Source: an uncultured virus (IMG/VR IMGVR_UViG_3300048503_000069) (Duplodnaviria; Heunggongvirae; Uroviricota; Caudoviricetes). Taken from it: a DNA stretch of 64,000 nt. The DNA lies in the IMG/VR virus record IMGVR_UViG_3300048503_000069, one strand, 5' to 3'. The notes under the pieces are model-generated. The model was not told the DNA's origin. It saw nothing but the letters and a program-made list of their open reading frames with translations, and searched no databases. Within the stretch, counting starts at the first letter, position 1; every line of letters begins with the position of its first letter. Below are positions 12,597 to 60,831 of the stretch, piece after piece. The position numbers and the translations under genes were made by a program.

Positions 12597-14588
12597 CTAG
12601 CGCATGTTTGCCGTGGAGGCGTTTAAGTGGTTGAAATGATTGGAGCGATTTTTGAAGTTGGTCACTACACGAGGCATTGTTTGTTCTCCGGCGGTGGGGG
12701 TGGATCGATTTGAGTAATGCCGAGCGCGCGGAGCACTTCGGAGGCATGTTTGTTTCCGCGGGTGACGCAGGATTTGCTGCGTTGCTGGCCGAGATCGACT
12801 TCGACGGAGCGGATTGTTTCCAGAGCTTGCCAAGCAAAAGGCGAGGATAGTTGGCTGCTCGCGGAGCGCAGATTCTTCTCCAAGGCGCGATCCAGTAACA
12901 GCGCCAGCGCAGCTACGAAGACATGAGCCTGCACCCGTTCATCGGTGTGGTGATACACGGGACGGAGTTCGAGCAGGCTCTTGAGATGAGAGAATCCGCG
13001 CTCGACCTCGTTCAGTTCCTTGTAGGCGGCCACGGCCTGAACCGGGGATAGATTGCACTCCTCGGTCTGGATGACGTACTTGCCCTCCAGGGCCATCTCC
13101 CGGGCCAGGTTGGTGGGATGCTCGAAGAAGTGGAACTTGCCGCGGCGCAGTTCCCAGTCAAAATAGCGCTGGCCGTGATGGCGGCGCAGGCGGGTGGCGG
13201 CAGCGGCGCCGATCTTGTCGGCTCCCTTCAATTGCCCTGATTCCACTTGCGCTTTTAAGGCCTCGAGCTCTTTGCGCGCCCGCCCCATGGTCAGTTCCCG
13301 CATACTGCGCTCGTAGACTTCGCGCTCCTCACTGTGCACCACGAAGACCCGCACGCCGGCTTGCTTGCCCGCCACCTCGACTACCCGCGTCTGGGGCACG
13401 ACCATCTTTTCCGCGGCGGCGATGCCCACCGGACACTGCTGCCAGTCGGTGCGTGCTTCCGCCTGCTGGATATAGTCGAAGGTGTCCTTGCGATTGCGTC
13501 TCTGCAGTCCCAGCAAGTAACCCTGCTGGCTCTGCCGCAGCTGCTCCACGTTGCCCATGGTCATCATGCCGCGATCACCGACGAACACCACACGGTTCAG
13601 AGCAAAACGCTGGTTCAGATCCTTCACCACTTCCAGCACTGTGGTCTGGTCCAGACGATTGCCGGCGAAGACGTGATGGGCGACTGGCCATCCATCCATC
13701 ATCACCACCCCGATGACGATCTGCCGGTGGCGCGGCTTGCCGTCGCGACTGTAGCCGAATCGTCCCAACTCCGCCGGGCCGGCCCCTTCGAAGTAGGTCG
13801 AAGTAATGTCGTAGAAGACCAGGTCCGGCTGCAGGCTGAACAGATCACGCAACTCCAGGTAGATGGCCTTTTCGATGCGCTCTTTTTCGGCCAGCAAATC
13901 GTCCAGGCTCTGATACCACAGCTTCAACTGGTCGAAGCCCACCTTGACCCTGCCGGACTGTTTCCACACCGGCATCCAACGACTGCCCTGGGCCGTGCAC
14001 ACATAGAAATCTTCCAGCCATTGCGCCAGCGCGTGCTCGCTGCCCGGACGGCTGAGCCGGTTGGCAAGCAAGGGAAAGATCCTTTCCGACAGCGGCTGCC
14101 CATGGCGCCGGGGAGCCTGGCCGGCATCCAGGATAGCGCCCAAAGAGAGTTTCTCGAAAAGATGCCGGGCGACTAAAACCGGTCCCCAGGTGGAGGCGCG
14201 AGGAGTAGAGATGTCATCGACGGCAACCCAGCCCGGATTCCCTTTCGGCTCTGCCAGAAGCCGGATCAAGGCACCCAGGTGCGGAGTCAACAGGTCCTTG
14301 CGTCCCAGATGAGCTACGATGCGCTGCTTGACCTTGTCCCCTTCGCGAAACGATTCCACCAGGCGGAGATACTCCTGTTGGCCATTGCGTGACTTCACCG
14401 AGCGCAGAAACATGAGACAGGCTCCGAATGACACTACATATAGCGCATTCACGCCGCATAATCAATGATTATTTGCGCACTCAATCAAAATATGTTGGCA
14501 CTACACTTTTCGAAAATCCTCGCTACTGACGATGATAATAAAGGACTTAACTGCTTCCACCCCGCTTTCCATGGCAAACATGCGCTAG
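12597..14588. mobile_element. IS1634-family element
   Basis: IR ctagcgcatgtttgccgtgga (12597-12617) vs tccatggcaaacatgcgctag (14568-14588), 20/21. Confidence 0.88.
12665..14452 (-). CDS. IS1634-family transposase (start probably MFLRSV)
   Basis: FYDITSTYFEG, FGYSRDGKP, VGDRGM, YKELNEVERGFSHLKS..LRPVYH. Confidence 0.93.
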   Translation of the reverse strand: MNALYVVSFGACLMFLRSVKSRNGQQEYLRLVESFREGDKVKQRIVAHLGRKDLLTPHLGALIRLLAEPKGNPGWVAVDDISTPRASTWGPVLVARHLFEKLSLGAILDAGQAPRRHGQPLSERIFPLLANRLSRPGSEHALAQWLEDFYVCTAQGSRWMPVWKQSGRVKVGFDQLKLWYQSLDDLLAEKERIEKAIYLELRDLFSLQPDLVFYDITSTYFEGAGPAELGRFGYSRDGKPRHRQIVIGVVMMDGWPVAHHVFAGNRLDQTTVLEVVKDLNQRFALNRVVFVGDRGMMTMGNVEQLRQSQQGYLLGLQRRNRKDTFDYIQQAEARTDWQQCPVGIAAAEKMVVPQTRVVEVAGKQAGVRVFVVHSEEREVYERSMRELTMGRARKELEALKAQVESGQLKGADKIGAAAATRLRRHHGQRYFDWELRRGKFHFFEHPTNLAREMALEGKYVIQTEECNLSPVQAVAAYKELNEVERGFSHLKSLLELRPVYHHTDERVQAHVFVAALALLLDRALEKNLRSASSQLSSPFAWQALETIRSVEVDLGQQRSKSCVTRGNKHASEVLRALGITQIDPPPPPENKQCLV

Positions 14589-14603
14589 CGCCCCAGGAGG
14601 CTT

Positions 14604-14972
14604 ATGAGCAAGCAAATCGTTTCCATCGGCAAGTCTGTTTCTTCCTCTGACACATCAACGGAAACTTCAACCAACCCCCAGCAGGCAAGAGTTTTTTGTG
14701 GCATTGACGTCAGCCGCGAGTCTCTGGCCGTGGCCGTTCTCACGCCGGACCAACCCATCGAACAACGCGAGTTTGCCAACTCGGCCAGCGGCCACAAGGC
14801 GCTGATTGCCTGGCTGGGCAAGATGAAGGCTCTGGCGCGGGTCTCACTGGAGGCTACCGGCATTTACTCGATGGACCTGGCGCTGGCGCTGGATGCGGCT
14901 ACCGGAATCGAGGTGGCAGTGCTGAACCCCAAGCGGGTTCATGATTTTGCCAAGTCGATGATGCGGCGCTCA
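14604..14972 (+). pseudogene. IS110-family transposase, N-terminal part only, cut at the junction
   Basis: CGIDVSRESL, LEATGIY, VLNPKRVHDFAKSMMRRS; sequence switches just before the expected KTD motif. Confidence 0.85.
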
Positions 14973-15461
14973 AGCAAACCACTTCCCCATAGAACGCTTG
15001 TTTATGTTCAGCCGTTTTATCACACCTTCAATCGGGCGATGCAACACTATCTTGACGTTTCCTATCTTTGACAGCATTAAATCATCTGCTTTAAGAGCGA
15101 ATCCCATTTGTGGGTAGGTGAATGAATCATAGCGCCCTTTGCCTTTGAACCTCGGATAACCTGCTTCTTTCTCTCCTGCTTTGACACGTCTAAAGAACGC
15201 TTTGAAGGCTAAGTCCACACGTTGAGAGACTTCTTGTAGCACTTGCGAATGAACGCTTGTCAGCTCCGGTCTATCACGCTTCCATATTGGTATCAACTTG
15301 TTCGTGTCATATCTGCCAAGTGTCACACCCTTTGACTCATATGCGGTCTTTCGCGTGGCTAATACCTCATTATATACCCATCGGCACAACTCTAAGGTTT
15401 GATTCATCTTAGTTTCCTGTGCCTTTGTCGGATAGAGCCGATAGCGATAGACCTTATGCAT
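14970..15461 (-). pseudogene. tnpB: TnpB N-terminal fragment, truncated at the junction
   Basis: YRYRLYPT, CRWVYN, AFKAFFRRVK, GYPRFK; closely similar to 56332-57432; no RuvC. Confidence 0.9.
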
Positions 15462-15556
15462 TGTTTATCTATTGGCATTATTAGCATAAGAATGTTAGGG
15501 TTAGGAACGCTCTGTATCCCCACCTTAAAAGGTTGGGGTTTTATCGCTGCTCACTC
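15462..15556 (-). mobile_element. IS605/IS1341-type left end
   Basis: Minus strand TTTAT followed by hairpin ccccaacc-ttttaa-ggtgggg upstream of tnpB. Confidence 0.65.
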
Positions 15557-15779
15557 ATAAAGAAAGCATCATAGCAAAATACGGCCAAATAGGCGACGAC
15601 GAGCAGGTACACATAGTTCAGTTTAGAAGAGAGTAAAAACTATTAACAAGTGTTAACCTATCTAAAGTGAGGGATTTCGTTCCTAGGCTCAACGAGACGG
15701 GAATGGATTCCCGTTTTTCACTTTAGGAGGAAGACACCATTCGAAAAAGAACTAAAGTTTTAATAGTATCGGCGTTCTC

Positions 15780-16004
15780 GTGCTACTTCTCATACTTGGC
15801 GTTTATCTGGTGATTAGTCCGCCGTCGGTTACCCCTACACCAACACCGTCACCAACGCCATTAGTCACACCAACGCCGACACCCACCCCACCACCGTCAC
15901 CAAGCCCGAAACCGACACCAACACCGAACCCGCCAGCGCCAGCACCAAAACCTGCACCAATTCCCTCGCCAACGTGTCGACCGTGTTATGTGACTTATGG
16001 ATAA
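15780..16004 (+). CDS. Membrane-anchored Pro/Thr-rich protein
   Basis: Hydrophobic N-terminus then (PT)n repeats; start uncertain. Confidence 0.55.
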
Positions 16005-16252
16005 GTGCGATAGCTGCGCGAACTATCTTCATTGCGACATAAAGCCGCGAGAGAACTGCGACGCGTATCGATACAGCGAGCTTCGTGATACGGCGCGGTG
16101 GGTCTGCTAAACTTCTAAGCTAGAAAAAGCACCTACCGCTTTTATTCTTCTTTTTCTCTTAACTATCATAATATCAAAATAGCATTAGCTATTTATACAG
16201 GGGCGGCCTTTAGTAATTTGTGTGAAGTGTAAGCTTCACGAGGTGACTAACA

Positions 16253-16540
16253 ATGCCTACAACCGAAGAAAACTGGGAATTCCTCGAGAACCTCGTTCTT
16301 AAGGAAATCGACCGTGAAAACGAAAAACTCGCGTACTGGGTAGAAGTGCTCGCAGAATATGGCGCAGACCTTCATAAGATTAGCGAGGAAGAACTAACTT
16401 CCGTTCCCGCGCACGTCGAGGTCAACGAAAAGCTCATCGGTACTCTTACGGGTATAAAGACCGCAGTAGCCGCCGCTGAGAAGTCGAACAACGCGCTTCT
16501 TATCGCGAAGCACCAGCTTCTCGAGCTTTACAACGCGTAA
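16253..16540 (+). CDS. Hypothetical helical protein with its own promoter
   Basis: tttatac TATA ~16192, 5' hairpin, GAGGTGA RBS, clean ORF. Confidence 0.75.
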   Translation: MPTTEENWEFLENLVLKEIDRENEKLAYWVEVLAEYGADLHKISEEELTSVPAHVEVNEKLIGTLTGIKTAVAAAEKSNNALLIAKHQLLELYNA

Positions 16541-17061: not shown

Positions 17062-17646
17062 CTACGGTTCACTTGTAGCCGCATCATCTTTATCGTGGGG
17101 ACAAAAACCGTAGTGGCCTATTGAGGTGTTACAGTTATGACATAAAACACGATAGCCACTCGGAAAGTTATTCTTCTTTAGCCACCTAAAGATTCCGTTT
17201 CCGCGGTAGCCTAGCTCATTTAGTTTAGCTCTATGTTTCGCACCACCGCCGTCTTTATGGTCTATCGCTAAAAATTGAATATGAGATTCGCCACAACACG
17301 CGCATCTTAGCGTACCGTTAGAATAATGAGAAAGAACCTCTTTTCTAAGTTTTTCTCTATGTTGTTGCTTTAATTCTTTATTATTTAATACGCGGCAGCT
17401 ATTACAATAGTCCGTTGTATTACTTCTTATGCTTCTTGGTCTAAACTCTACTCCACATCGCTTACATAGCTTTTGCGGTGGTTGGATTAAGTATGTATAA
17501 CACTCGTCGCAATAATAAAGCGTGAAATGTGGCACAGCATTACCGTGTCTGGTAGTGGTAAAGATTGTACCACAACGTTTACATGGCTTAGGTTCTGTCC
17601 CTATGCGTCGCGATTGATTGTACTCAGCTACCTTACCTCGTTGCAT
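17062..17646 (-). CDS. Zn-finger HNH endonuclease, family A
   Basis: HYSNG..CACCGE..FLAIDH..G.G..HR...WL..FPSGYRVLCHNCN..G.YGFCPH. Confidence 0.85.
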   Translation of the reverse strand: MQRGKVAEYNQSRRIGTEPKPCKRCGTIFTTTRHGNAVPHFTLYYCDECYTYLIQPPQKLCKRCGVEFRPRSIRSNTTDYCNSCRVLNNKELKQQHREKLRKEVLSHYSNGTLRCACCGESHIQFLAIDHKDGGGAKHRAKLNELGYRGNGIFRWLKKNNFPSGYRVLCHNCNTSIGHYGFCPHDKDDAATSEP

Positions 17647-18018
17647 TATAGAGATGTATGATATACTAGCTTATAGATATTACGCGCTATCGAAATTAAC
17701 CATATGTTAATTATACACGATAAATCTCACTCTCATAAAAACACTTAAATACGATATAGGCGCTCTATGTATTGAAAACTCTAAAGGAGGTAGTATATCA
17801 GGAAACGTGCAAAAGTTCGGTGCAATAGAGAAATTCGGAGACGTGCGTCTTTAAACATTCATCTCCAAAAGATAGAGCTTTCGACACACGTCTTTTAAAT
17901 TTATCGACTTTGTCACCTCAGCGCCTAGGGTGCGACTCTGTAACCTCACCTCCCGCAGTGTCGCGCCCTCGTATCTCAAAGAGTTTTTATCGAAACATAA
18001 AAAAAGGAAAACAATATA

Positions 18019-18525: not shown

Positions 18526-18794
18526 TGTCTCAGCTCAAATACGACGATGTAATGGGTAAAGAGGCACAAGATAAGCTAACCGGGCTTAAAGGGATTATTG
18601 TAGCCGTAGGGGAATACTATAACGGCTGCGTTCAGTACCTCGTTAAACCGGCAGAGATAAAGGACGGTAAACGCATCGAGGGCGAATGGATTGATAGAGA
18701 ATTCTTAGAAATTCTCGGTCAGAAGCTCACACGCGAGAACGTTAAACCGGCCGGTGGTCCTAGTTCTAGTGACCCGCCGTTGGGTGTTATTTAA
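18525..18794 (+). CDS. Phage hypothetical protein
   Basis: DKLTGLKGIIVA..EYYNGCVQYLV pattern; overlapping start/stop. Confidence 0.7.
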   Translation: MSQLKYDDVMGKEAQDKLTGLKGIIVAVGEYYNGCVQYLVKPAEIKDGKRIEGEWIDREFLEILGQKLTRENVKPAGGPSSSDPPLGVI

Positions 18795-18795
18795 C

Positions 18796-18978
18796 GTTTC
18801 AGGCGGGAAGTCTCCTTCCGAAAGGTGGGAGATGAGAGCCGCTCTTATCCAACACAAACCTTTATAGTTATAGAAAACAATGAGGAACTATGAAATATCA
18901 ACTAAGCAAAGGCGCTCATTCCGTCTACGCACTCCAATACCACTTCGTTCAGTGTGTCAAATATAGGCGCGATGCTTT
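18796..18978 (+). mobile_element. IS200/IS605 remnant: left end plus tnpA 5' fragment
   Basis: TTAAC then gtttcagg and hairpin; MKYQLSKGAHSVYALQYHFVQCVKYRR identical to tnpA at 55931, then diverges. Confidence 0.85.
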
Positions 18979-19074
18979 GGTTGAGCCATGGCTCAGTGAG
19001 AACGATTATCCTGTCTTGAAAAAAGTAGACGGCGTTCTTAACTGGGAATGGGTTATGTGGCAACTTAGGCAATT

Positions 19075-19764
19075 ATGATAGACACAATAATCTGCGGCGA
19101 CTGCCTTGAGGTTTTAGAAGAGATGCCTGATAACTATGTGGATGCAATTATAACTGACCCCCCTTACTCAAGCGGTGCGCGACGTGACGCAAACGCGAAT
19201 CTGCGACAGGCGCGTCGTCGAGGGGAAGATAAGCGCGCGTTCAGCAATGATACACTCACAAGCAAAACGTTCGCGTGGTTTATGCGGGCGTGCGGCTTAC
19301 AATGGGCGCGCGTCTTAAAACCAGACGGCCATTTATTAATATTTATTGACTGGTATCACGGATATAATATAGCAAACGCATTAGAAACGGCTGGGCTGAA
19401 ACAGGTTAATTTAGTTGTATGGGACAAGCAGTACTTTGGTATGGGGCATTACTTCCGCAATCAGCATGAACTAATATTACATTTTTTAAACTACGAACGT
19501 CCAAAACCGTTTGCGCAGAACGTAGGAAACGTTATCTCAATAAAACCAATCCGTAACGGAATACACCCAACGGAAAAACCAGTTGAGTTGATAGAACGTA
19601 TGTTACCCGTGGTAACTAATGAATACGACACCGTTCTCGACCCCTTTGCGGGCAGCGGCACAATCGCAGTCGCATGCCGTCGCAGCAACCGCCACTATAT
19701 CTGCATCGAAAAAGAACCAGAATACTGCGCGATTGCTGAGAAACGAATCGCGGAGATGTTGTGA
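19075..19764 (+). CDS. DNA N6-adenine/N4-cytosine methyltransferase, beta class
   Basis: TDPPY, HPTEKP, VLDPFAGSGT in beta order. Confidence 0.93.
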   Translation: MIDTIICGDCLEVLEEMPDNYVDAIITDPPYSSGARRDANANLRQARRRGEDKRAFSNDTLTSKTFAWFMRACGLQWARVLKPDGHLLIFIDWYHGYNIANALETAGLKQVNLVVWDKQYFGMGHYFRNQHELILHFLNYERPKPFAQNVGNVISIKPIRNGIHPTEKPVELIERMLPVVTNEYDTVLDPFAGSGTIAVACRRSNRHYICIEKEPEYCAIAEKRIAEML

Positions 19765-19856
19765 ACGCGCGATAAAATCGGAATGGAGCGTATTCCAGAA
19801 TATAAAGAACTAATGATAGAAACAAATAAAAGAACGAACGTGTTAAAGCATTAGCT

Positions 19857-19952
19857 GTTATCGGTGGGTTCTCCGTCGCTGGTCAGCTCACCAATAACGT
19901 CGACCGCCGACTTACATTCGGTTAGTCACCTCGTAAGCGGCGGTTAACTTTT
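19857..19952 (+). ncRNA. Candidate double-hairpin RNA/terminator with antisense loop
   Basis: Stems 19857-19898 and 19899-19948 then T-run; 19921-19934 is the exact reverse complement of 16238-16251. Confidence 0.5.
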
Positions 19953-19958
19953 ATTCAT

Positions 19959-20327
19959 ATGAAAAAACAATGCGCGTGCGGGACGGTTTTGCTCTATGCT
20001 AAAGAGCGGGGTATTGTTATTCTTCAGTGTCCTAACTGTGGTCGACACTATTCTCTTGGATATATCTATAACGAGATAGAAACCTCATTACCGCTCGACG
20101 TCACCGATAGAAAAATACTATCGTATCTATGCGCGAAACCGTGTTGCACACCCCTAGAGATATGCGCGCTCTTCGACGACGAAGCACCGTCATATGATAC
20201 GATTCTACGTAAAGTGCAAAGACTAGCTAGACACGGCTACGTTGAAGCGCAGAAAAGAAAGAACGGCCGGTGGATTTACTACGCCACCGAAAAGCTAGAG
20301 AGTTTAAATCGAGGTGAAAGGCGCTGA
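19959..20327 (+). CDS. Zn-ribbon plus winged-HTH regulator
   Basis: CACG/CPNCG; LDVTDRKILSYL...VQRLARHGYVE. Confidence 0.7.
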   Translation: MKKQCACGTVLLYAKERGIVILQCPNCGRHYSLGYIYNEIETSLPLDVTDRKILSYLCAKPCCTPLEICALFDDEAPSYDTILRKVQRLARHGYVEAQKRKNGRWIYYATEKLESLNRGERR

Positions 20328-24497: not shown

Positions 24498-25094
24498 ATG
24501 CGACTGGTGAAAATGACGGAAAGGGTTTGTTCTAATTGTCATAAGCCGTTCGACGAACCTCACGAGTTTAAGCAGTGTGATAGGTGCCGCAAAATAGGGC
24601 GCGAAACTAAGCTCAAATGGTGGCACGAAAAAAGAAGAACGGCGGCAGGTCCCGTGTGCTCAATATGTCTTAAACCACACGACGGAAAATACAAAACTTG
24701 TGAGCGATGCCTTAGCTATAAGCGAAAATTTCGTAAAGAGCATCCAGAAGCCGACAATGAATGGTATCTAGCGCACCGGGACGAACTGCTTAAGAAATCT
24801 AAAGAATACCGTGAACAGACCCGCTTGATGGTTTTGACACATTATTCTAACGGGGAAACTCCGCGCTGCGCTTGTTGTAACGAACAAAATATTGAGTTTC
24901 TTTGTATAGACCATATAAACGGAGGGGGGCGTCAGCATAGAAAACAGCTAATAAAGAGCGGGATAACCCCGTATCTTTGGCTTGTTAGGAATGATTTTCC
25001 AGAAGGTTATCGGGTTCTTTGTTGGAACTGTAACTCATCACTCGGACTTTACGGATATTGTCCCCACGATAAGGTGCCAAACTGTGATTTTTAA
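24498..25094 (+). CDS. Zn-finger HNH endonuclease, family A
   Basis: Two extra CxxC pairs N-terminal; CACCNE..IDHI..CWNCN..YGYCPH. Confidence 0.85.
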   Translation: MRLVKMTERVCSNCHKPFDEPHEFKQCDRCRKIGRETKLKWWHEKRRTAAGPVCSICLKPHDGKYKTCERCLSYKRKFRKEHPEADNEWYLAHRDELLKKSKEYREQTRLMVLTHYSNGETPRCACCNEQNIEFLCIDHINGGGRQHRKQLIKSGITPYLWLVRNDFPEGYRVLCWNCNSSLGLYGYCPHDKVPNCDF

Positions 25095-28963: not shown

Positions 28964-29356
28964 ATGAGAAAATGTACTAAATGTAGTAATATGATTAATG
29001 CCGACGATAGGCATAAGCTATGTCCTCGTTGTCGTGAAAAGAATAAAGAAATAAAGCTTAGAGTAAGAAAAGGCCGCGAAGAAAGAGGCGTCTGTACGCA
29101 ATGCGGTAAAAAAAGAGATAGTGAGTTGTACCTCTTATGCGCTAAATGTCGTGATAAAAAAAGTCATAGTCCCTCTCGCGTAAAGCGTGGCGTTAATAAA
29201 ACAAATCCAGTTCGCGTGTATCCTACACACATTAACCTAAGTAAAGCGTATATCATCAAAGTAGACGAGGTGGCCGCGAGAGCGCACCTAACTAGAACGG
29301 ATATAATGGAAACGCTCATCTCGAAATATATAAATCGCGTTGAGGTCTGGAAGTGA
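28964..29356 (+). CDS. Zn-finger protein with RHH-like C-terminus
   Basis: Four CxxC pairs; THINLS...VDEVAARAHLTRTDIME. Confidence 0.55.
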   Translation: MRKCTKCSNMINADDRHKLCPRCREKNKEIKLRVRKGREERGVCTQCGKKRDSELYLLCAKCRDKKSHSPSRVKRGVNKTNPVRVYPTHINLSKAYIIKVDEVAARAHLTRTDIMETLISKYINRVEVWK

Positions 29357-33619: not shown

Positions 33620-34240
33620 ATGGATAAAAAAGAGTACCAAAAGCAGTATCGAGCTAGGCATAGAGATAAGCTAGCCGAGTACAGCAAGCGGTACTACGCC
33701 GAGAACAAGGATAAATTTGCTAAATTAAATAAGCAATACCGCGAAGAGCATAAGGAAGAGTTAGCTGCTAAGGCAAAAGAGTACAATAAGCATTACTACG
33801 TTGAGAATAGAGAGCAGGTACTAGAGCGTTCGAATAAATGGAAAGCCGAGCATAAAGAAGAGTTAAAAGTAAAGTCTAGAGAATATTATCTTAAGCATTA
33901 CGAAGATACGTTAAAATGGAACGTCGAGCATCGAAAGAAAAAAGCAGAAATCGCTAAACGTTATCGTGAGACTCTTAATAAACGAGTAGAAGAGATTAGT
34001 CCTAATATCTGTTTTTTTAATGACGAACACGCTTGTAGAAGTCGTAAAGGCTGGAAGCTAGACCTACACGAAAAAAGTGGAAACGGTCATAATAAATGGG
34101 CCGTTAGGATTATTCTCGACGATACATCGAAAGCTAATGATTTTGTACGCTTATGCTCAAAACATCACGATATGGTACACGCTTTAATGGAGCTAGGCCG
34201 AACGTGGGATGAGATAGAGACGTTTATTAACATATGTTAA
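33620..34240 (+). CDS. HNH-like endonuclease with basic repeat N-terminus
   Basis: C..C..LDLHE...LCSKHHDMVH; own TATA ~33588. Confidence 0.65.
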   Translation: MDKKEYQKQYRARHRDKLAEYSKRYYAENKDKFAKLNKQYREEHKEELAAKAKEYNKHYYVENREQVLERSNKWKAEHKEELKVKSREYYLKHYEDTLKWNVEHRKKKAEIAKRYRETLNKRVEEISPNICFFNDEHACRSRKGWKLDLHEKSGNGHNKWAVRIILDDTSKANDFVRLCSKHHDMVHALMELGRTWDEIETFINIC

Positions 34241-35216: not shown

Positions 35217-35939
35217 ATGAAAGCTCTTTGTCACGTTTCGTATGAGCTAAAACCTAAAAAACCGTCACTAGCCGCCGGAAAAGTATTCGGTAGCTTTGGG
35301 TTAGACTCGGAACAGGGTAAGCGCGAGTATGTGAAACCATTCACTCTCGAGTTTAAAGAGAGAGACATTATTGCGTTTGTTGGCACCTCTGGAACTGGTA
35401 AAACAACCTGCTTACAGCAGCTAAAAGCGCAAACGCTCGGGCTCGACCTAAACGAGTTAGTTTTCGATAATGATAAAACCGTTATAGAACATTTTAATGA
35501 TTATGACGTTGGGCTAAAGAACCTAAGCATTTGTGGTCTAGCCGAAGCGCAACTTTTTATGCGGTATCCATTCGAGCTAAGCGACGGGCAAAGGTATAGG
35601 TTTAGAATGGCTCTCGGGCTTAGCGATAAACGAAACGTGTTAGTGTGCGATGAGTTTCTAGCCACGTTAGACCGGATAAGCGCGAAAACTATTGCGTTTA
35701 GCATTAGAAAACTAATTTCGAATAGCGATAAAATCTTAGCGATAGCCACCACACACGAAGATATTCTCGAAGACCTGCAACCGAACATAATCGTTAATTT
35801 CGGCCCCGAAGGCGTAGAAATCGCGAATAAAGAGATAATTAAAAAAAAATCTCATTTTATAATAATCTCGTCATTGCACGGGGCTCTAGAGCAGATTGGA
35901 ACCGGTTTAGTAAGTGGCACTACCGAGGAAAAGAAATAG
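35217..35939 (+). CDS. ABC-type ATPase (N-terminal part of ABC-GNAT)
   Basis: GTSGTGKT, LSDGQRYR, CDEF, ATTHED. Confidence 0.85.
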   Translation: MKALCHVSYELKPKKPSLAAGKVFGSFGLDSEQGKREYVKPFTLEFKERDIIAFVGTSGTGKTTCLQQLKAQTLGLDLNELVFDNDKTVIEHFNDYDVGLKNLSICGLAEAQLFMRYPFELSDGQRYRFRMALGLSDKRNVLVCDEFLATLDRISAKTIAFSIRKLISNSDKILAIATTHEDILEDLQPNIIVNFGPEGVEIANKEIIKKKSHFIIISSLHGALEQIGTGLVSGTTEEKK

Positions 35940-36478
35940 GTTTTTTGAAGTATGCGTATATCCTCATTCACGATGACGAACCGATTGCCTTCTGTGGCTT
36001 CTCACCACCGGGGCTCGCAAACTCAGTTAGAATTCGTATTTTTCGCGGTAGCTATAAGAAAATGACGACACGAACGGCAGAAATCATTAATTCTAGGTTT
36101 ATAAACCTAAGTCGTATCGTTATCGACCCTAGATATAGGGGTGCCGGAATTGCTAGTGATTTCGTTAAAGCGTGCTGCTTATATGATGATTTAGTAAAAG
36201 AGCGATTCATCGAACTTATTACCTCGATGGGACAGATAAATCAATTCTGGAAGAAAGCCGGATTTAAAGACTACGGGCAAACGATGAGCGACACCATCGG
36301 CGGAACAGTTTCAATCGGCGGTGCTTCGCGAAAGAAGAAAGCAAAGACCGGGCAACATAATTGGCCCCACGAGAATCAGGGTGGACACGTTCGCTCAGAA
36401 ACGAAAGCTCAAAGTAAGTTGGCGGTCATGAGATACTATCTACTCGATATAAAGAAGGCTAAAGGAGAGAATAAATGA
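35841..36478 (+). CDS. GNAT acetyltransferase domain reached by -1 shift at A9
   Basis: -1 frame is open from the A9 run: KISFYNN..WNRFSKWHYRG..LSRIVIDPRYRGAGIA. Confidence 0.72.
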
Positions 36479-36723
36479 TAAAAATATATTCACTGCCGGT
36501 ATGTCCGAATTGTAAAGTATTAAAAACCACCTTAAAAGAACGTAACATTACGTTCGAAGAGGAAGAACTCGGAACACCCAAAGTAAAAACAGAAATGCTT
36601 ATGCACCACGTTTTTACAGACATGGCACCAGTACTTCGTGTTGATGATAAATATTATACCTCTATAGAAATCTTTAATGAAAAAGGAGATGTAAAGGTAG
36701 ACATACTAAATACGCTATCGTAA
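36475..36723 (+). CDS. Glutaredoxin-like protein
   Basis: IYSLPVCPNCKVLK, APVL. Confidence 0.85.
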   Translation: MIKIYSLPVCPNCKVLKTTLKERNITFEEEELGTPKVKTEMLMHHVFTDMAPVLRVDDKYYTSIEIFNEKGDVKVDILNTLS

Positions 36724-37108
36724 AATGGCAGACCCTAATACATTAGTAATAAACGACGGAGTAAGCGACTACTCGACTGAACCAATACTAGAACAGTGTC
36801 TAACCTGCGAGCACGTAAAACTAGACGACGTGCAGGGCGGGGGTCTAGTCTATAATGTTACGTGCGGCGCGTTTCATACGCCGTATCTTAAATTCACGGC
36901 AGAAGGAGAAGGAGATACACTTGTTGTTACCGAAGAGCATTGTAAATATCGCGTACGAATAAGAGATGAAAAATGACAACATGGACATTTCCGCCGGAAC
37001 TCCAAGTGGAAAAGCGATAAACTGTGGAACGATTGGCATTGTCTAGTAGAATATTATGGTACGATGTGTTTTCAAAAGAAAAGAAGGACTATATGGCTTC
37101 CTTAGACG

Positions 37109-38852
37109 AAAAATCCGCGAGAGAATAGTATGTGGATACTACACGACACGACATTTACCTTTTTTGATGATGTATTTATTTTTAGTAAAGCGTTCGAAGT
37201 AATAGGCCGCCCTAGTTACGTGATTCTTCATTGGCAGAACGAAAATATTGCACATTCGATTGTTGATGAAGAGTCATATCGACAAACAAAGGATAAATTA
37301 CATAATTTAGCTAAGAGATTGCTATCGAGAGATTTATGGCAAATGGCTGATTATCATAAAGCGCTTGCTAGGCCGATTATAACGCCCGAAGTCGTTGAAA
37401 GACTAGAATCGCTTGTAGGCACGCGCATATATCGAGACTTAGTCACAGGCATAGAAACGCGCGAAGCCTACTACGGTGAAAAATCGCGAGGGAAAAGATA
37501 TGACTAAACTAATAATTAGCATAAGTGATGAAAACATAGCGTGCTGGGAAGAATATAAACTAGATTTAGCTTATGAAGCGCGAAGATGGGCCGAAAAAAG
37601 AGAAGTTAAGCTCGGTAAAATAATAATAACCGACGATGAAGCTATCTCGGGACTTTTCGACTGCGTAGAAGAGGAAGGAATTTTCTGTTGGGACCTTCTA
37701 TGGAAAATCGTAGAACGAAATGCTTTAGAAGGCGAATTAGAGCCACAATAACGAAAAATCCGCGCGGGAATAACATGCCGAATTGTAAAGATTGTGAAAA
37801 TAACGTATTACCTAACTATTGGCCTCCGTGTGCGTTTAGCGCGCCTAAGAACATAAAGATGCACGATAAAGAGTGTTCAAAATTTACTCCTATGAAGTTT
37901 CCGCATACCTTTTGGCGCGGAATGTCTCATGGCGGCTGTTACATCATAAACGAAAAAAGAGAGGTCATAAACGACATTAAATTCGGCCCGTATGACTAAA
38001 AATCCGCGTGTGAGAAGAAATGACTAACGAATCGTTTGATATAATAACAGAAATTAAATACGCCGACCGTATAACAGGGGATATCGTCGAATATGCTAAA
38101 GGCATGGACTCTACAGGAAAAATACATTATTTCTTATTAGAACCGATGGGTACTAAAACTCGCTGGACTGAATTAAACGAATATGCCTATGAGAAAAATA
38201 AATTCGATATGAAAGATTTATTTATGATTGTTCCGAACGAAATAAACCACGTAAAGACTCTCTAGACTAAAAAATCCGCGTGTGAGATGAAATGACTAAC
38301 GACACACAATTTATTATAAAAACATTCCATAACGATAGTGTGTATATTAACGACGCTATAGACTTAGAAATATCCGACGTAGGCGAATACGACCTTTTAG
38401 CCTTAATGAGATTAATCATAATAGAACTAGAGACTCGGCATCTAATCCCGCAAGATATGGCGTATGAATACTAAAAAATCCGCGAGTGAGCTAAACGATG
38501 ATTAAAAAGTCTAAACGAATCGAAACTAAAGAAGTCGAGGACGTTACCTACATCTGCGACCGCTGTGGTAAGGCGGCAAAACGAGGCAATTATACTCCCG
38601 CACTTCGAGAATGTTGCATATGTGGTCGGTGGATTTGTCGTTCCTGCGCTATCGGTTTTGACTCACTTGAATACGAGGGGTATGCTTATGACCGCCCGTA
38701 TTATCGTGCCTGTCGTGAATGTTTAGATGCTGGCGATTATAGGCAACGAATAAAAGAAGCACAAGAAAACGCAGATATGATAAAGGCCGCTGTTTTAAAA
38801 GAATGGAGAATGGCGTCTAAAGTGAAAAATTTCGCGAGAGAGTAGAATAATG
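37109..38852 (+). repeat. Seven AAAAAT(C)CGCG-type motifs, each just upstream of an ATG
   Basis: Motifs at ~37109, 37479, 37754, 37998, 38269, 38473, 38825; ATGs at 37130, 37500, 37775, 38020, 38292, 38498, 38850. Confidence 0.85.
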
Positions 38853-38999
38853 AGCCTAAGAGAAGTACCATGTATCACCTGTAACTATAACATGGAATAT
38901 TACACTCGTAGTAACGGAAGACTAGAACACTGTGGAGCGAAATGTCTTCGATTAAGAAAAAGGAGAGCCGTAGCTCAGGCGCCTCCAGCGACCTACTAA
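38850..38999 (+). CDS. Small Cys-containing protein (49 aa, not in the ORF track)
   Basis: MSLREVPCITCNYN..HCGAKC; follows the seventh motif. Confidence 0.55.
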   Translation: MSLREVPCITCNYNMEYYTRSNGRLEHCGAKCLRLRKRRAVAQAPPATY

Positions 39000-40398
39000 A
39001 CTGAAAAAACATAGCTCGACCCTCTCGGCATACATCTTCACACACGAAAGGTATTAGGGTGGCGTATCATCCCTATAACGGCCTTCTTTGCACTTCGAAA
39101 AAAGAAAGGATAAGGTAGTTGCTAGGTGACGCTACATATCGATAGGTAGGGGTCGAAAAAAGAAAAGAAAGAATAACATCCGGCGAAGTTTAGGTTTAGG
39201 GGCTGTGAAGCGCTTCGATACCTCTTTTTCTAGATGAGCACCTAAGGTTAATAATGAATAACGCCTACACTTCTTTCTTTTTTCTAACGAAGCAATATGT
39301 CTCGGGTAAGTTCTTTAACGAAGCCCGTAGCGGCCATTTCTGAAAATGTTGATAAAGAGAAATAACGGTGACTGCCACACCTTCCGTTAGCGCTTTATTC
39401 CCGCGATGTAGGAACAATGCTCATCGGTGCGTGTGGTCGAGGCCGTTAAGATACAAAAGAAGGGTAAGGTATCTTCATCACCACGACTCGCGCGATGAAC
39501 GTGCGGGTAGGTAACGGACAACAGAACGGACAACCAACGGACAACTAATCGGCCACTCTCAACCCGACCACCCGGCTACAACCGATGACTCATTGGGTGG
39601 TGTGGCATTGGTGGAGTGTGGGCCTAGAGGCAAGAAGGCCACTAGGGGTAGTATGTCACCCACTACACCATTAGACATAGCCACACTCTCCTTCTCTTCA
39701 TCACGAGACGAGGGTGAGTCGGGTGGGTGAGGGCGAGTCGCGGGTAGAAGGCCACTCAGCGACTTGGCCACTATGCCATCCGAGAAGGTAGGTGTAGTCT
39801 ATAGATAGGCGGGTGGTGTAGAGTAGACTGATGGGTGTGATAAGGTGGTGGGCTAAAGGCCACACGGCCACGTGGGCCACATAGCAACAGAGATGAGGCT
39901 AGTCTTTGTTAGTTCGTGCATCGAAGAGACGACGAGCGATGGGCTAGGGAAAGAAATACTAGCAAGGCAACTATAGTATCATCCCTTTATTAATTCTTTA
40001 ACCCAACCGAGCCACCGGCCTAGGTAGGGGGGTAGGTATACACGGAGAGTAGTTACGGGTGACATATCTTGGGCTATAGGCCGACCGACGGATAAAAGGC
40101 CGGCGTTATGGCGACCAATTAAAAGAAATCTGCTGGAAAAAATGAGTCTCGCCACCAATCAGGGCGTGCAAACAGGCAATACGCCCTTCGGGAACGGCGT
40201 CAATTTTTCGGAATTCTCTAGAATCTTCGTAGTAAATTCGAAAGTAGCAAAACGGCGATTCGGTTTCCTAGGCGGTGATAATTTTTCCGAAAATCGAGTC
40301 GAGTAAGGAATCGTGCCTTTATATACCCCTACTCGTGTTAACATATGTTAATTTCCTTTACGAAATATATATAACATATTCCGCACTATAGAAATTAT
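39000..40398. other. Long non-coding region with AACGGACAAC x3 and GGCCAC x7
   Basis: No credible ORF; direct repeats 39513-39545; co-oriented GGCCAC 39551-39880. Confidence 0.7.
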
Positions 40399-40876
40399 AT
40401 GTGGACGTGCAGTTGCGGTAGAAACTTTATCGCTCGACCTGACGCTACGGGTGAACTACGAACAAAGTGCAGTACGTGTCTAAGTGAAGAGCACCGTAAA
40501 CTTCCCGAAGTTATGGAACAAACGCGCGCGCGAGAAAGAAGATGGTATGCTAAACATATAGACTACCGGCGAGAGTATCAGCGAAATTATCGCGCGCGTC
40601 GTAGGGGTGCGTAACGGTGGCCCACTGTGCGGGTTGCGGTAAGACGTTTATCGCGAAGAAAAAGAAATTGGCTCGAGCTAATAAACGAATATTCGAAGCG
40701 CATACGCTATGTTCGCTATGTAAGCATAAAGAATATAATAAGGCGTGGAGAGATAAAGTTGTTATCTAAGGTAGTGATGGAAATTGGAATATATTTCATA
40801 AGCGGTATTCTAGCGATAGGACTTATAATTACTGAAACTCTTTTATTTATAGAACTAAAGCTTAAGAACCAAAAGA

Positions 40877-41632
40877 ATGCCACGTAGAGCGCCAATTTGG
40901 GGTCTTGAACATCTTTCAGATGATGAATACAAGACATCTTTAGAGGGTCGATATAAGGATAGAGAACTCCCGACAGAAGCCACACTAAAAGCGCGTAAGG
41001 AAAGCCAAGAGAAACGCGAAAAAATAGTTATAGTTGGCATAGACCTCGGAAAGGAGGTTGATGCAACTGTTTTAGCCATCGTCGAACCAACCGAGAACTA
41101 CGAAAATCCTATTTATCTAGTGCACAATGTTATCCCCGTCCGCTTAGGGACAAGTTACGCAACGATAATAAGTAGTGTTGCGGCACTCGACGAACAGCTT
41201 CGTCTCCGTAAGAACGCAATTGATGTTAAGTACGTAGTAGACGCCGGGGGTGCGGGGGGCGTCGTCGATAGTCTCGAAGAAGCGCTGCCTAAAGCGGATA
41301 TTTATAAGGTGCATATAACCTCGGGGTACGAATCCACTATCCATGATGATTTTAAAATCGGGCTCCCTAAACGCGAGTGGGTCACCACCCTTAAAAAAGT
41401 ATTAGAAGCGAAAAGAGTTAGGTTTCATTATATCGACGACGACGGTAGAAGAGATTCGGGGATGAGACTCTTAGAAAACGAAATTAACAATTTTCAGATG
41501 AAGATTTCTCAAACGGGATACGATAAATACGAAGCAAGTAGCGGACATCACGACGACGCGGTTCAAGCATTAGGGTTAGCCATCTGGTTCGGCGAGCGTG
41601 AAGCGGGGCGTGGGCCGTTACGAATATGGTAG
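40877..41632 (+). CDS. Terminase large subunit, RNase H-like nuclease domain only
   Basis: VGIDLGKEVDATVL, VVDAGGAG, HHDDAVQALGLA. Confidence 0.82.
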   Translation: MPRRAPIWGLEHLSDDEYKTSLEGRYKDRELPTEATLKARKESQEKREKIVIVGIDLGKEVDATVLAIVEPTENYENPIYLVHNVIPVRLGTSYATIISSVAALDEQLRLRKNAIDVKYVVDAGGAGGVVDSLEEALPKADIYKVHITSGYESTIHDDFKIGLPKREWVTTLKKVLEAKRVRFHYIDDDGRRDSGMRLLENEINNFQMKISQTGYDKYEASSGHHDDAVQALGLAIWFGEREAGRGPLRIW

Positions 41633-54556: not shown

Positions 54557-54814
54557 CCCCCCGAGCGCACTTTCGTTATTATTATTTTTCTTTTTTAGCT
54601 TTTCTTCAGCTTCAGCTATGATAAATTCCCACTTATAGGATTCGTTGGGTAAGATGATATACTCCATTTTTCTTTTTCACTCTCCGTAGATAGAGAAGTC
54701 GTATAGCATAGTAGTAGTTTCGCACATAGAACATAGAGAACTCCTTTTTTTCGAGGTGAGGTTTACACGTGTTAATTTATTTCGAAACTCAAAGGTATAT
54801 ATACATAATGATAT

Positions 54815-55837: not shown

Positions 55838-55930
55838 GTTTCAGGTGGGAAGTCTACTTGCGAAAGCTGGTAGATGAGAGCCGTTCTTATACACCATAAA
55901 GTTTATAGTTCTATAAAACAATGATAAACT

Positions 55931-56326
55931 ATGAAATATCAACTGAGCAAAGGCGCTCATTCAGTCTATGCACTCCAATACCACTTTGTTCAGTGTGTAA
56001 AATACCGGCGAAACGCTCTTGCTAACTCAGAAGTCGTGGCACTACTCAAAGACAAGATACACGAAATAAGCGAGACGTTTGAGGTCGATGTGCTGAACAT
56101 AGAAGCCGATAAAAACCACTTTCATATGATATTCGCAGCGAAGCCAACGCTTGACATTCCACGATACATCAACGCGCTAAAGACAATAACATCGAGAGAG
56201 ATACGGCGAAACTTCCCCGAAGTCAAAGAAACGCTGAAACGGGGGACGTTCTGGTCTCGCTCGTATTTCCTAGCTACTACAGGACAAGTGACACTCGATA
56301 AGCTGAAACACTACGTTGAGAGTTAG
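55931..56326 (+). CDS. tnpA: Y1 HUH transposase
   Basis: YHFVQCVKYRR, NHFHM, FWSRSYF, HYVE. Confidence 0.95.
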   Translation: MKYQLSKGAHSVYALQYHFVQCVKYRRNALANSEVVALLKDKIHEISETFEVDVLNIEADKNHFHMIFAAKPTLDIPRYINALKTITSREIRRNFPEVKETLKRGTFWSRSYFLATTGQVTLDKLKHYVES

Positions 56327-56331
56327 GGACG

Positions 56332-57432
56332 ATGAATAAAGTCTTTCGTTATAGGCTGTATCCGACCGCACACCAAGAAACGGTGATGAAGCAAACGCTT
56401 GAGCTGTGCAGATGGGTCTATAACGAAACACTGGCAACACGGCGCAACGCGTATGAAGCAACAAAAGACTTCCCATATTCTCGACACGTTTTGTATTCTC
56501 GATACGACACGCAAAAACTACTGTTGCTCTGGAAACAAGAACGACAGATACCTGTGTATTCTCAGGTGCTCCAAGAAGTTCAATATCGAGTAGACTTAGC
56601 CTTCAAAGCATTTTTCCGGCGGGTAAAAGCTGGAGAGAAAGCAGGATACCCGCGTTTCAAAGGTAGGGGCTGGTGTGATTCATTCACTTACCCACAGTCA
56701 GGTTTTGCTCTCACAGGTTCAACGCTACAGTTGTCAAAGATAGGTGATGTCAAAATCAAACTACACAGACCGATAGAGGGCGAGATAAAGCGGCTTAACA
56801 TAAAGCGCAGTTCAACAGGGAAGTGGTTTGCGTGTTTCACTGTTGACGGTTGGAGAGAGATACAAATAGCACCTAACAATGCTGCGGTTGGTGTTGATGT
56901 TGGCATAAATTCGTTTGCCACACTGTCAACTGGTGAACACATAGACAACCCACGTTTCTTTAGAGCTGAAGAAAAACAGTTAGCGAAAGCGCAGCGAAAT
57001 AAGGCAAAGAAGGTAATTCCGAAGATACACGAACGCATAGCGAACAAGCGGAGTAACTTCGCTCACCAGTTAAGCAGAAAGCTTGTCGATACATACGGCA
57101 TCATCGCCTTCGAGGACTTGAATATCAAAGGGATGATGCAAAACAGCCACCTAGCAAAGTCAATAGGCGATGTGGCGTGGAGTCAGTTCATCACATTCAC
57201 GAAGAACAAAGCTGAGAACGCTGGTTCAGTAGTGGTGATGGTTGACGCAAAGAATACAACTCAAGAATGTTCGAGATGTGGTCAGATAGTTCATAAAGAG
57301 CTGAAAGACCGCGTTCATTCGTGTGACTGCGGACTTGTCTTAGATAGAGATGAGAACGCGGCTAAGAACATACTCGGTCGTGGGCTAGCGACCGTTCGTG
57401 GAAACACGATAGAAGCTGCTTGCGTAAGCTAG
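56332..57432 (+). CDS. tnpB: RNA-guided nuclease TnpB
   Basis: RuvC GVDVG, AFEDL, DRDENAA; Zn finger CSRCG/CDCG. Confidence 0.96.
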   Translation: MNKVFRYRLYPTAHQETVMKQTLELCRWVYNETLATRRNAYEATKDFPYSRHVLYSRYDTQKLLLLWKQERQIPVYSQVLQEVQYRVDLAFKAFFRRVKAGEKAGYPRFKGRGWCDSFTYPQSGFALTGSTLQLSKIGDVKIKLHRPIEGEIKRLNIKRSSTGKWFACFTVDGWREIQIAPNNAAVGVDVGINSFATLSTGEHIDNPRFFRAEEKQLAKAQRNKAKKVIPKIHERIANKRSNFAHQLSRKLVDTYGIIAFEDLNIKGMMQNSHLAKSIGDVAWSQFITFTKNKAENAGSVVVMVDAKNTTQECSRCGQIVHKELKDRVHSCDCGLVLDRDENAAKNILGRGLATVRGNTIEAACVS

Positions 57433-57561
57433 TAGAGTAGTCACTGTCGAACTCGATGCGATAGAGATGAGAACGCGGCTAAGAACATACTCGGTCGTGG
57501 GCTAGCGACCGTTCGTGGAAACACGATAGAAGCTGCTTGCGTAAGCTAGTAGAGTAGTCAC
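57343..57561 (+). repeat. Perfect 102-bp direct repeat of tnpB 3' end/right end, separated by 15 nt
   Basis: 57343-57444 equals 57460-57561; spacer tgtcgaactcgatgc. Confidence 0.93.
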
Positions 57562-57900
57562 GGAGTGATGTAAAATGATAAAAGAAGTACCAAAGAAAAC
57601 GAAAGAATACGCACAGGACTATGTATCTATTATAATTCTCTCATTTATGGCGGTGGGGCTATTTATAGTCGAAATCGTCGGCGGAGAGAAACCCGTATCG
57701 AAGAAGAATAACGGAAAGAAGCATCTAAGAATATTCTAACGGTGAAACAAAAATGATAAAAAGAAGTGGATACTACTCAACGTTTCGTCTACAACTCGAC
57801 GAAAATGTAGGACTCGCGCTCTATGACGCCGCGAATAAGCATAACGTAACGCCGGACTATTATATCGAGAATTTACTCGATTCGTTGTTAAGGTAATATC

Positions 57901-60339: not shown

Positions 60340-60831
60340 TTGATAAACTTTAAACCTAAGCCGTGTAAGAGCTGCGAAGTAGTATTTATTCCTCGCGGTA
60401 ATAACCAGAAGTATTGTGACGCGTGCGCGAAAGAAGTTAAACTGATTAGTAATAGACGCAACGAGCTTAAGTATAGACTTAACCACCCCACTGAAAAACG
60501 CGTAAGAGATAGTAACTATTATCAAACGCATAAAGAAGAAAAACTTGCTCGTGGAAACGAAAGGCGGCGCTTGTTAAGGATTAAAGTTCTTTCTCATTAC
60601 GCTAACGGTACGCCAAAATGTGCGTGTTGTGGCGAATCTCATATTCAATTTTTAGGGATAGACCATATAGACGGTAATGGTGGAAAACATAAAGCTACAA
60701 TAAAAAGACCCGGTAATCAATTCTATAGTTGGTTAAAGAAGAATAATTTTCCAAGTGGCTTTCGGGTTTTATGTCATAATTGTAATCTATCTTTAGGATT
60801 CTACGGTTTTTGTCCCCACCAACAAAGGTGA
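60340..60831 (+). CDS. Zn-finger HNH endonuclease, family A
   Basis: CACCGESHIQFLGIDH..CHNCN..YGFCPH. Confidence 0.85.
   Translation: MINFKPKPCKSCEVVFIPRGNNQKYCDACAKEVKLISNRRNELKYRLNHPTEKRVRDSNYYQTHKEEKLARGNERRRLLRIKVLSHYANGTPKCACCGESHIQFLGIDHIDGNGGKHKATIKRPGNQFYSWLKKNNFPSGFRVLCHNCNLSLGFYGFCPHQQR

Follow-up and report, generated by a model that had tools for sequence, protein, structure and literature searches.

An intergenic two-hairpin element

The 194-nt gap between an N6/N4 DNA methyltransferase gene (19075-19764) and a gene for a small regulator with a zinc ribbon and a winged helix (19959-20327) ends in a structured element. Two hairpins, one directly after the other, occupy its final 100 nt (Table 1). 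Unless a contig is named, positions are those of the window, the whole 64,000-nt stretch of DNA from the uncultured virus IMGVR_UViG_3300048503_000069 that was analysed. A small coding gene in the gap (19765-19958) is ruled out, as there is no ORF with a start codon and the stop-to-stop frames are at most 31 aa long. A tRNA was also considered, and ARAGORN found none. An end hairpin of an IS200/IS605 element was rejected as well, since the right end of the full copy does not resemble the intergenic region. Rfam gave no family at gathering score in the window, and none overlapping 19846-19958 at E values up to 1.

Table 1. Features of the element, of its putative target and of the shared leader (window coordinates unless a contig position is given)
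Feature	Position	Strand	Remarks
Probable promoter of gene 16253	16181..16208	+	Box AGCATTAGCT (16181-16190) and TATA-like TTTATAC (16202-16208); presumed role
Target leader ACGAGGTGACTAAC	16238..16251	+	Shine-Dalgarno core GAGGTGA, 6 nt before the ATG at 16253
Target gene	16253..16540	+	95-aa acidic, soluble-looking, helical protein; no Pfam family
Upstream gene, N6/N4 DNA methyltransferase	19075..19764	+	Stop codon 135 nt before the hairpin
TATA-like AATATAAAG	19800..19808	+	Possible promoter of an RNA or leader with both hairpins
Second AGCATTAGCT box	19847..19856	+	Same orientation as at 16181; directly before the two-hairpin element
Upstream partner hairpin	19857..19898	+	Forms, with the next hairpin, the two-hairpin element of ~100 nt
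Loop-bearing hairpin	19899..19948	+	15-bp stem, 17-nt loop; dG -22.8 kcal/mol, z -4.4
Loop AUUCGGUUAGUCACCUC	19916..19932	+	Holds the anti-Shine-Dalgarno core UCACCUC
U-run UUUUAUU	19949..19955	+	Adjoins the 3' side of the stem; the ATG of gene 19959 is 3 nt further on
Downstream gene, 4-Cys zinc ribbon and winged-helix regulator	19959..20327	+	Named ArsR family by one source; without its own Shine-Dalgarno sequence
Leader copy 1	contig 28,676	+	Then ...ACAAAAATG; small basic ORF, then SWIM-finger gene
Leader copy 2	contig 34,262	+	Then ...TTAAAAATG; 289-aa lipoprotein-like gene, Orc1/Cdc6 gene ~600 bp on
Leader copy 3	16,238	+	Then ...AACAATG; gene 16253
Leader copy 4	19,934	-	Then ...AACCGAATGTAA; no gene; inside the hairpin loop

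The stem of the second hairpin is formed by 19899-19900 with 19947-19948, 19902-19909 with 19938-19945, and 19911-19915 with 19933-19937. It is interrupted by a bulged A (19910) and by one unpaired base on each side (C19901, A19946). A sequence-only reading of the region had described a 14-nt antisense match lying mostly in the loop of a stem of about 16 bp before a T-run. This description is borne out: the stem has 15 bp, 12 of the 14 nt are in the 17-nt loop, and UUUUAUU follows. When the segment 19897-19950 was folded (dG -22.8 kcal/mol, z -4.4), none of 200 shuffled sequences was equally stable, and the hairpin ranks 13th among the folds of the viral part (non-overlapping 70-nt segments, both strands). 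For the two-hairpin element as a whole (19846-19958, 113 nt) the plus strand gives dG -43.2 kcal/mol and z -5.0, again with 0 of 200 shuffles as stable. The minus strand gives -42.5 kcal/mol and z -5.7, so folding favours neither strand.

Like an intrinsic terminator, the hairpin has a G+C-rich stem of 15 bp with UUUUAUU adjacent to it, and it lies downstream of a gene. It is unlike one in the size of its loop, which at 17 nt is far above the usual (a consensus scan for loops of 3-8 nt made no call), and in its position, between a stop codon 135 nt upstream and an ATG 3 nt downstream. The consecutive U residues in the run 19949-19955 number only four. In archaea a U-run alone is the usual termination signal.

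The orientation of the surrounding genes is uniform. From 18019 to the end of the window all 54 of the 54 non-nested ORFs of at least 90 aa are on the plus strand, and for this reason a plus-strand RNA that crosses the element and carries the loop is to be expected. In the vicinity of the element there is no minus-strand gene and no convincing minus-strand promoter, and no TATA-like box is rightly spaced for a minus-strand RNA spanning the whole hairpin. A T-rich run, which on the plus strand corresponds to 19820-19840, follows the element on that strand. The box AGCATTAGCT precedes both the element and the leader of gene 16253; at the latter, TTTATAC and the leader are about 30 nt apart, and the box at 19,847 is not followed by a good TATA box. 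If that box were part of a promoter with the geometry found at 16253, an RNA might start near 19,898, at the foot of the hairpin. An origin of the RNA in a 3'-UTR, as had been suggested, is one possibility; an independent RNA, or the 5' leader of gene 19959, is just as conceivable.

Other structured regions have been detected in the viral DNA. A second plus-strand hairpin (17927-17971), upstream of gene 18019 and followed at 17984 by UUUUUAU, has a 13-nt loop, AACCUCACCUCCC, which is an anti-Shine-Dalgarno sequence that mimics the 16S 3' end. This loop pairs over 11 nt with GAGGTGAGGTT at 54753-54763, a match that alone is not significant. The 2-kb region 38845-40877, in which 39552-39786 is the most notable segment, has no ORF of at least 90 aa, yet no other local fold in the viral part is as stable as the one it holds (-34.7 kcal/mol per 70 nt). 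Searches for tRNAs and Rfam families there were negative, and it could contain an unknown structured RNA.

The virus, its probable host and its relatives

The GC content of the window is about 60% from 1 to ~14,900 and about 43% from ~15,500 to the end. Genes in the ~43%-GC part encode terminase, portal, a head-morphogenesis protein, many HNH endonucleases, a ParB-like nuclease, a PD-(D/E)XK exonuclease and the DNA methyltransferase, and the same part has one full IS200/IS605 copy. An 80,483-bp IMG/VR viral contig matches the window at 99.7-99.8% identity from 14,971 on, and a 37.9-kb metagenome contig matches it at 99.9% identity from 17,897 on. On the far side of 14,971 the two sequences part: the window has 60%-GC DNA upstream of this point, the IMG/VR contig 43%-GC viral DNA that includes a full tnpB of 372 aa. 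Because the contig has viral DNA and a full-length tnpB at this place, the left 15 kb of the window are probably the product of an IS-mediated rearrangement or an assembly chimera, and lie outside the virus. At the junction itself (14970/14971, within 14585-15461) the truncated N-terminus of an IS110 transposase (plus strand) abuts the N-terminal 163 aa of tnpB (minus strand). For counts over the virus, a composite of 86.5 kb was used, in which bases 1-38,100 of the IMG/VR contig were placed in front of the window sequence that starts at 15,542. In its upstream 38 kb that contig carries tail genes, two further tnpB genes and an Orc1/Cdc6-type AAA+ protein (Cdc6_lid, E 2e-19), the gene for which lies outside the window (L107:15747-16889, i.e., IMG/VR contig 35747-36889).

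The closest relatives of the TnpB proteins (48-64% identity) are mostly archaeal in name: most of the 80 loci listed bear the name Methanothrix, Methanosaeta, Methanocrinis or Methanotrichaceae. An Acidobacteriota MAG gives the single best match. Sigma-70-like promoters are depleted, with 4 observed against 9.3 in shuffles. Because of these TnpB relatives and this depletion the host is taken as probably archaeal, and the Orc1/Cdc6-type gene on the IMG/VR contig supports the assignment. The virus is therefore probably an archaeal tailed virus. A host call from the 60%-GC left part was also tried; a single conserved gene there matches Methanotrichaceae genomes (64-82%), and nothing else, which is uninformative.

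A hypervariable patch (15766-16048) holds 21 of the 22 differences between the window and the IMG/VR contig in the 11.3 kb compared, including indels of 2 and 6 nt; it lies in or just after ORF 15780-16004, which encodes a membrane anchor and a Pro/Thr-rich repeat. Three paralogues, at 17062-17646 (minus strand), 24498-25094 and 60340-60831 (both plus strand), share blocks of nucleotide identity, the first and third being 81% identical. Among these three, PHROGs called only 17062-17646 an HNH endonuclease; further HNH genes are at 29353, 47503, 47851, 50050 and 63250. The full IS200/IS605 copy (55838-57562; tnpA 55931-56326, tnpB 56332-57432) is inserted after TTAAC, and 65 nt of its tnpB 3' end and right end are directly repeated (57380-57444 and 57498-57562). 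A remnant of such an element (18793-18985), consisting of the left end and the first ~32 tnpA codons at 88% identity, precedes the methyltransferase gene.

In the 99.7-99.9% identical contigs, the sole DNA relatives found, neither the hairpin loop nor the leader site of gene 16253 described below shows any variation. More distant relatives of the element were sought in several collections. Against viral_contigs, queries with gp19959, gp16253, the stem pattern, P0005 (a protein 52% identical to gp16253), the A2 profile and the exonuclease returned the near-identical contig only, and a 16-mer query added three unrelated chance matches. Relatives of the methyltransferase are without the two-hairpin element, and RNA model R1, run over 5 records, did not find it. 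The matches from a metagenome scan were a single near-identical contig and three loci of Lrp or RND type, which are unrelated, and GenBank phages gave no relative. A gp16253 profile matched 0 of 105 Methanotrichaceae genomes, and gp19959 matched 2 of 392 genomes of the class, by weak winged-helix matches only. According to the protein clusters, relatives do exist. P0008 clusters at 90% identity with P0001, itself a protein with 93% identity to gp19959, and P0010 is in the cluster of P0005; each is on a JGI contig of 13,170 bp, probably one and the same contig.

The antisense match and the shared leader

The loop-bearing hairpin was singled out for its complementarity to a distant translation start. 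As had been claimed, 19921-19934 on the plus strand, GTTAGTCACCTCGT, is the exact reverse complement (14/14) of 16238-16251, ACGAGGTGACTAAC, a segment that ends 1 nt before the ATG of ORF 16253-16540. The proposed extension through two bulges was also found. With one bulge the pairing becomes GCTT(C)ACGAGGTGACTAAC, in which 16233-16251 matches 19921-19938 at 18 of 19 positions, and a second bulge adds AATG; CAUU at 19915-19918 can pair with the AAUG of the target leaders. Read on the minus strand, the hairpin shows a Shine-Dalgarno sequence, 8 nt, ATG and TAA, in agreement with the same reading.

By itself such a match means little. The window contains 71 inverted 14-mer pairs, of which about ten are isolated singletons like 19921/16238, and when the 86.5-kb composite is shuffled with its dinucleotides preserved, each shuffle still yields 10-29 inverted matches of at least 14 nt. 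The bare inverted 14-mer is at chance level because shuffles produce so many. For the narrower class of an intergenic segment antisense to a start site over 14 nt, about 0.18 are expected per virus; a hairpin-loop requirement would lower this figure further, but the class was defined after the match had been seen, and very many windows were scanned. A pure coincidence, in which a stable intergenic stem-loop happens to hold one of the ~10-29 chance inverted 14-mers, would account for all of this. It would be helped by the presence in both partners of a common Shine-Dalgarno or anti-Shine-Dalgarno core, GAGGTGA being found 13 times in the window against 4.8 expected (an excess that comes partly from the host-like part). 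The matched motif, however, is no random 14-mer but the conserved core of the leaders of three genes, and this repeated leader is what lifts the match above the bare chance level. Given the 7-nt core, seven more matching bases are estimated to have p ~6e-5 per site pair, or ~0.003 over the ~40-60 pairs that bear the core. A second shared box, AGCATTAGCT, also joins the same two regions. On this balance coincidence appears improbable.

The repeated motif is the 11-mer ACGAGGTGACT, with 4 copies in the virus composite: 3 on the plus strand and 1 inverted in the hairpin loop (Table 1). Each plus-strand copy lies 4-6 nt before an ATG and has a TATA-like box ~30-38 nt upstream. Copies 1 and 2 are known from the near-identical IMG/VR contig, outside the window. 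Since the Orc1/Cdc6 gene lies downstream of the lipoprotein-like gene of copy 2, the leader class may include a replication module. The loop is complementary to all 11 bases, and its contiguous matches to the three leaders are 14, 13 and 12 nt long. Beyond the 11-mer the flanks agree at random level (0-4 of 9 positions per pair, counted manually). The 16S rRNA 3' end, which we take to be ...GAUCACCUCCU, accounts for GAGGTGA only, or 7 of the 11 bases. The four extra bases, conserved in three independent leaders, would therefore require another reader besides the 16S rRNA, and the 11-mer is the sharply bounded conserved leader of a small class of genes. Its rarity at gene starts is in keeping with a special class: of the 51 starts listed in the window, that of 16253 alone has GAGGTGA. 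Family size is not decisive, because of 40 shuffles 19 contain 11-mers with at least 5 G/C and at least 4 copies, though never more than 3 such 11-mers in one shuffle. The leader-family argument rests on the location of the copies and their sharp edges, not on copy number.

Other repeated sequences are present in the virus. A second leader family, AAAAATCCGCGAG, precedes the ATG of small tandem genes by ~8-10 nt. Its six copies (22840, 37109, 37754, 37998, 38270 and 38474) all lie on the plus strand, with no antisense counterpart. An operator-like palindrome, ATTAACATATGTTAAT, is found at 34226, 40339 and 58881 with a variant at 17699, and another, TTAACAAGTGTTAA, has 4 copies in the virus, 2 of them in the window (15644, 43564).

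The anatomy of the inverted copy suggests a different history. On the minus strand the copy keeps GAGGTGA, 8 nt and ATG, the same spacing as in the leaders at contig 28676 and 34262, with TAA immediately after. It could be the relic of an inverted translation-start cassette whose gene was lost, leaving ATG-TAA, so that its pairing with the leaders is incidental. The structured region around it would then be ordinary, serving RNA 3'-end formation or stability (the hairpin and U-run do resemble a terminator) or as leader structure of gene 19959. The virus is mosaic in such modules: the promoter module TATATAGTTAAACAT has 3 copies, at leader copies 1 and 2 and, leaderless, at window 55,222, and AGCATTAGCT is found both at gene 16253 and in the gap of the element. 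If the copy is young, its complementarity is explicable without selection. Against this, a neutral copy should decay like its flanks, yet the matches are contiguous over 14/14 and 13/13 while the flanks are random. There is also the lack of a minus-strand gene or convincing promoter nearby. The copy is moreover placed in the loop of a 15-bp stem made partly from the leader flanks (GCTTAC/GTAAGC), and the relic is disfavoured because chance insertion fails to explain this placement. A relic without function is thus unlikely, although a more serious contender than coincidence. Inverted duplication is in any case a common origin of antisense regulators, and is compatible with function.

The motif might also be read as DNA, or from the minus strand. 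In one version ACGAGGTGACT is an operator bound by a viral protein, e.g., the zinc-ribbon/winged-helix regulator, present at three promoters and inverted before the regulator's own gene; at three genes the motif does lie downstream of a TATA-like box and ahead of the ATG, its distance from the regulator's ATG is 25-38 nt, DNA sites function in both orientations, and the virus has other repeated operator-like palindromes. ACGAGGTGACT, however, is without dyad symmetry, and in all copies there is a perfect Shine-Dalgarno sequence at the correct distance from ATG, which suggests a reading at the RNA level. In the other version a minus-strand RNA would act as a decoy, showing Shine-Dalgarno, AUG and UAA in its loop to ribosomes or to a leader-binding factor. 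The minus strand does fold equally well and leads into a T-rich run, but it offers no properly spaced TATA-like box for an RNA of the whole hairpin, and no minus-strand genes lie downstream. Taken jointly these two versions are considered very unlikely.

A candidate anti-leader RNA

The only antisense copy of the three-gene leader is on the coding strand, in a very stable structure, beside a regulator gene. This arrangement is consistent with a functional virus-encoded anti-leader RNA that works like c4 of phage P1 or sRNA41 of Methanosarcina mazei, a reading to which we give a probability of roughly 0.4. In such a scheme the two-hairpin element (19857-19955) would be transcribed from the plus strand, as the tail of the methyltransferase operon, as the leader of regulator gene 19959, or as a separate short RNA. 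The second hairpin would expose 5'-GGUUAGUCACCUCGU-3' in its large loop, and the loop would pair with the leader ACGAGGUGACU(AAC), 4-6 nt before the AUG of three viral genes. The targets would be gene 16253 and a pair of genes in the upstream portion of the virus; one of the pair heads the stretch with the Orc1/Cdc6-like replication gene. The duplex would cover the Shine-Dalgarno sequence and, by way of a bulge or internal loop, the AUG as well, and so keep ribosomes from binding. With increasing transcription of the plus strand in this region, the set of genes with this leader would be switched off, giving a temporal or immunity switch. What the analysis shows is the sequences and their fold, duplex energies that favour pairing, a leader that recurs, and a position on the coding strand; that the RNA accumulates, pairs in vivo and lowers translation, we infer. 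After the cost of opening the hairpin, cofolding gives ddG values of -9.4, -6.9 and -3.4 kcal/mol for the three leaders, the first being that of 16253. A counterpoint is the ATG at 8-nt spacing in the inverted copy, which antisense function does not need.

Known systems provide two parallels. The P1/P7 C4 RNA is described as an antisense RNA needed for full repression of ant (PMC8198154). The element resembles c4 (immI) as a predicted phage-encoded structured RNA with an exposed segment complementary to the RBS region of a gene that it does not overlap. It differs in its probable archaeal host, and in having three dispersed targets with the same leader where c4 has a single downstream target in the same operon. 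The c4 RNA masks the icd RBS and blocks expression of an early or anti-immunity function, and Rfam includes a C4 model; the element has no match in Rfam even at E up to 1 and is not a member of the C4 family. In M. mazei, sRNA41 and sRNA154 use an anti-RBS in a hairpin loop to mask the RBSs of several mRNAs and repress their translation, and RBS masking by loops is, on that account, an established mechanism of archaeal sRNAs (PMC5867862). Here, too, an anti-Shine-Dalgarno sequence, UCACCUC, is found in the loop (19916-19932) of a stable hairpin, and several candidate targets, the three ACGAGGTGACT leaders, share a complementary RBS motif. The M. mazei RNAs are chromosomal, stress-regulated, mapped transcripts, in contrast to a candidate virus-encoded RNA aimed at the virus's own leaders.

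Type I toxin-antitoxin pairs are a less suitable comparison. Antisense complementarity to the RBS of a target mRNA is shared with them. Their toxins, however, are small (usually <60 aa), hydrophobic membrane proteins, and gp16253 is an acidic, helical protein of 95 aa; their antitoxin RNAs adjoin or overlap the toxin gene, while here 3.7 kb and five ORFs separate the two sites. A search of 1.84 billion representative proteins with gp16253 gave 4 proteins at E up to 0.001: itself, one 94-aa homologue with 52% identity, and two large repeat proteins, one of them with ankyrin repeats, to which gp16253 has a weak likeness. Because the target is no small hydrophobic toxin and the RNA is not adjacent, the antitoxin-like role first proposed is unsupported. 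The more general proposal, a trans-acting antisense RNA against 16253, keeps the complementarity, the hairpin, the U-run, the favourable duplex and two more leaders in its favour.

Antisense RNAs that act in trans by masking an RBS are familiar from bacteria and their phages, with a few examples from methanogens. For archaeal viruses, regulatory RNAs are, to our knowledge, almost unexplored, and a full-text literature search, which was not exhaustive, found no virus-encoded RBS-masking RNA of an archaeal virus. It is possible, if more tentative than an anti-leader function as such, that this hairpin RNA of an archaeal virus masks the Shine-Dalgarno leader of three dispersed early units as a c4-type switch, and that it arose by inverted duplication of its target. 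One of the masked units would then lie just upstream of the gene for the Orc1/Cdc6 replication initiator, and the RNA would be made beside the gene for the zinc-ribbon/winged-helix regulator, or as its leader. We know of no earlier switch of this kind in an archaeal virus.

If the match is a relic or a coincidence, it has implications for the reading of other viral sequences, since exact antisense 14-mers are routine in genomes of 60-90 kb and call for caution. If an anti-leader RNA is made, one loop and three leaders would provide a compact, testable model of RNA-based gene timing. It would also be an example of a regulator born from the inverted duplication of its own target, and would give a handle on which genes of an uncultured virus share one regulon.
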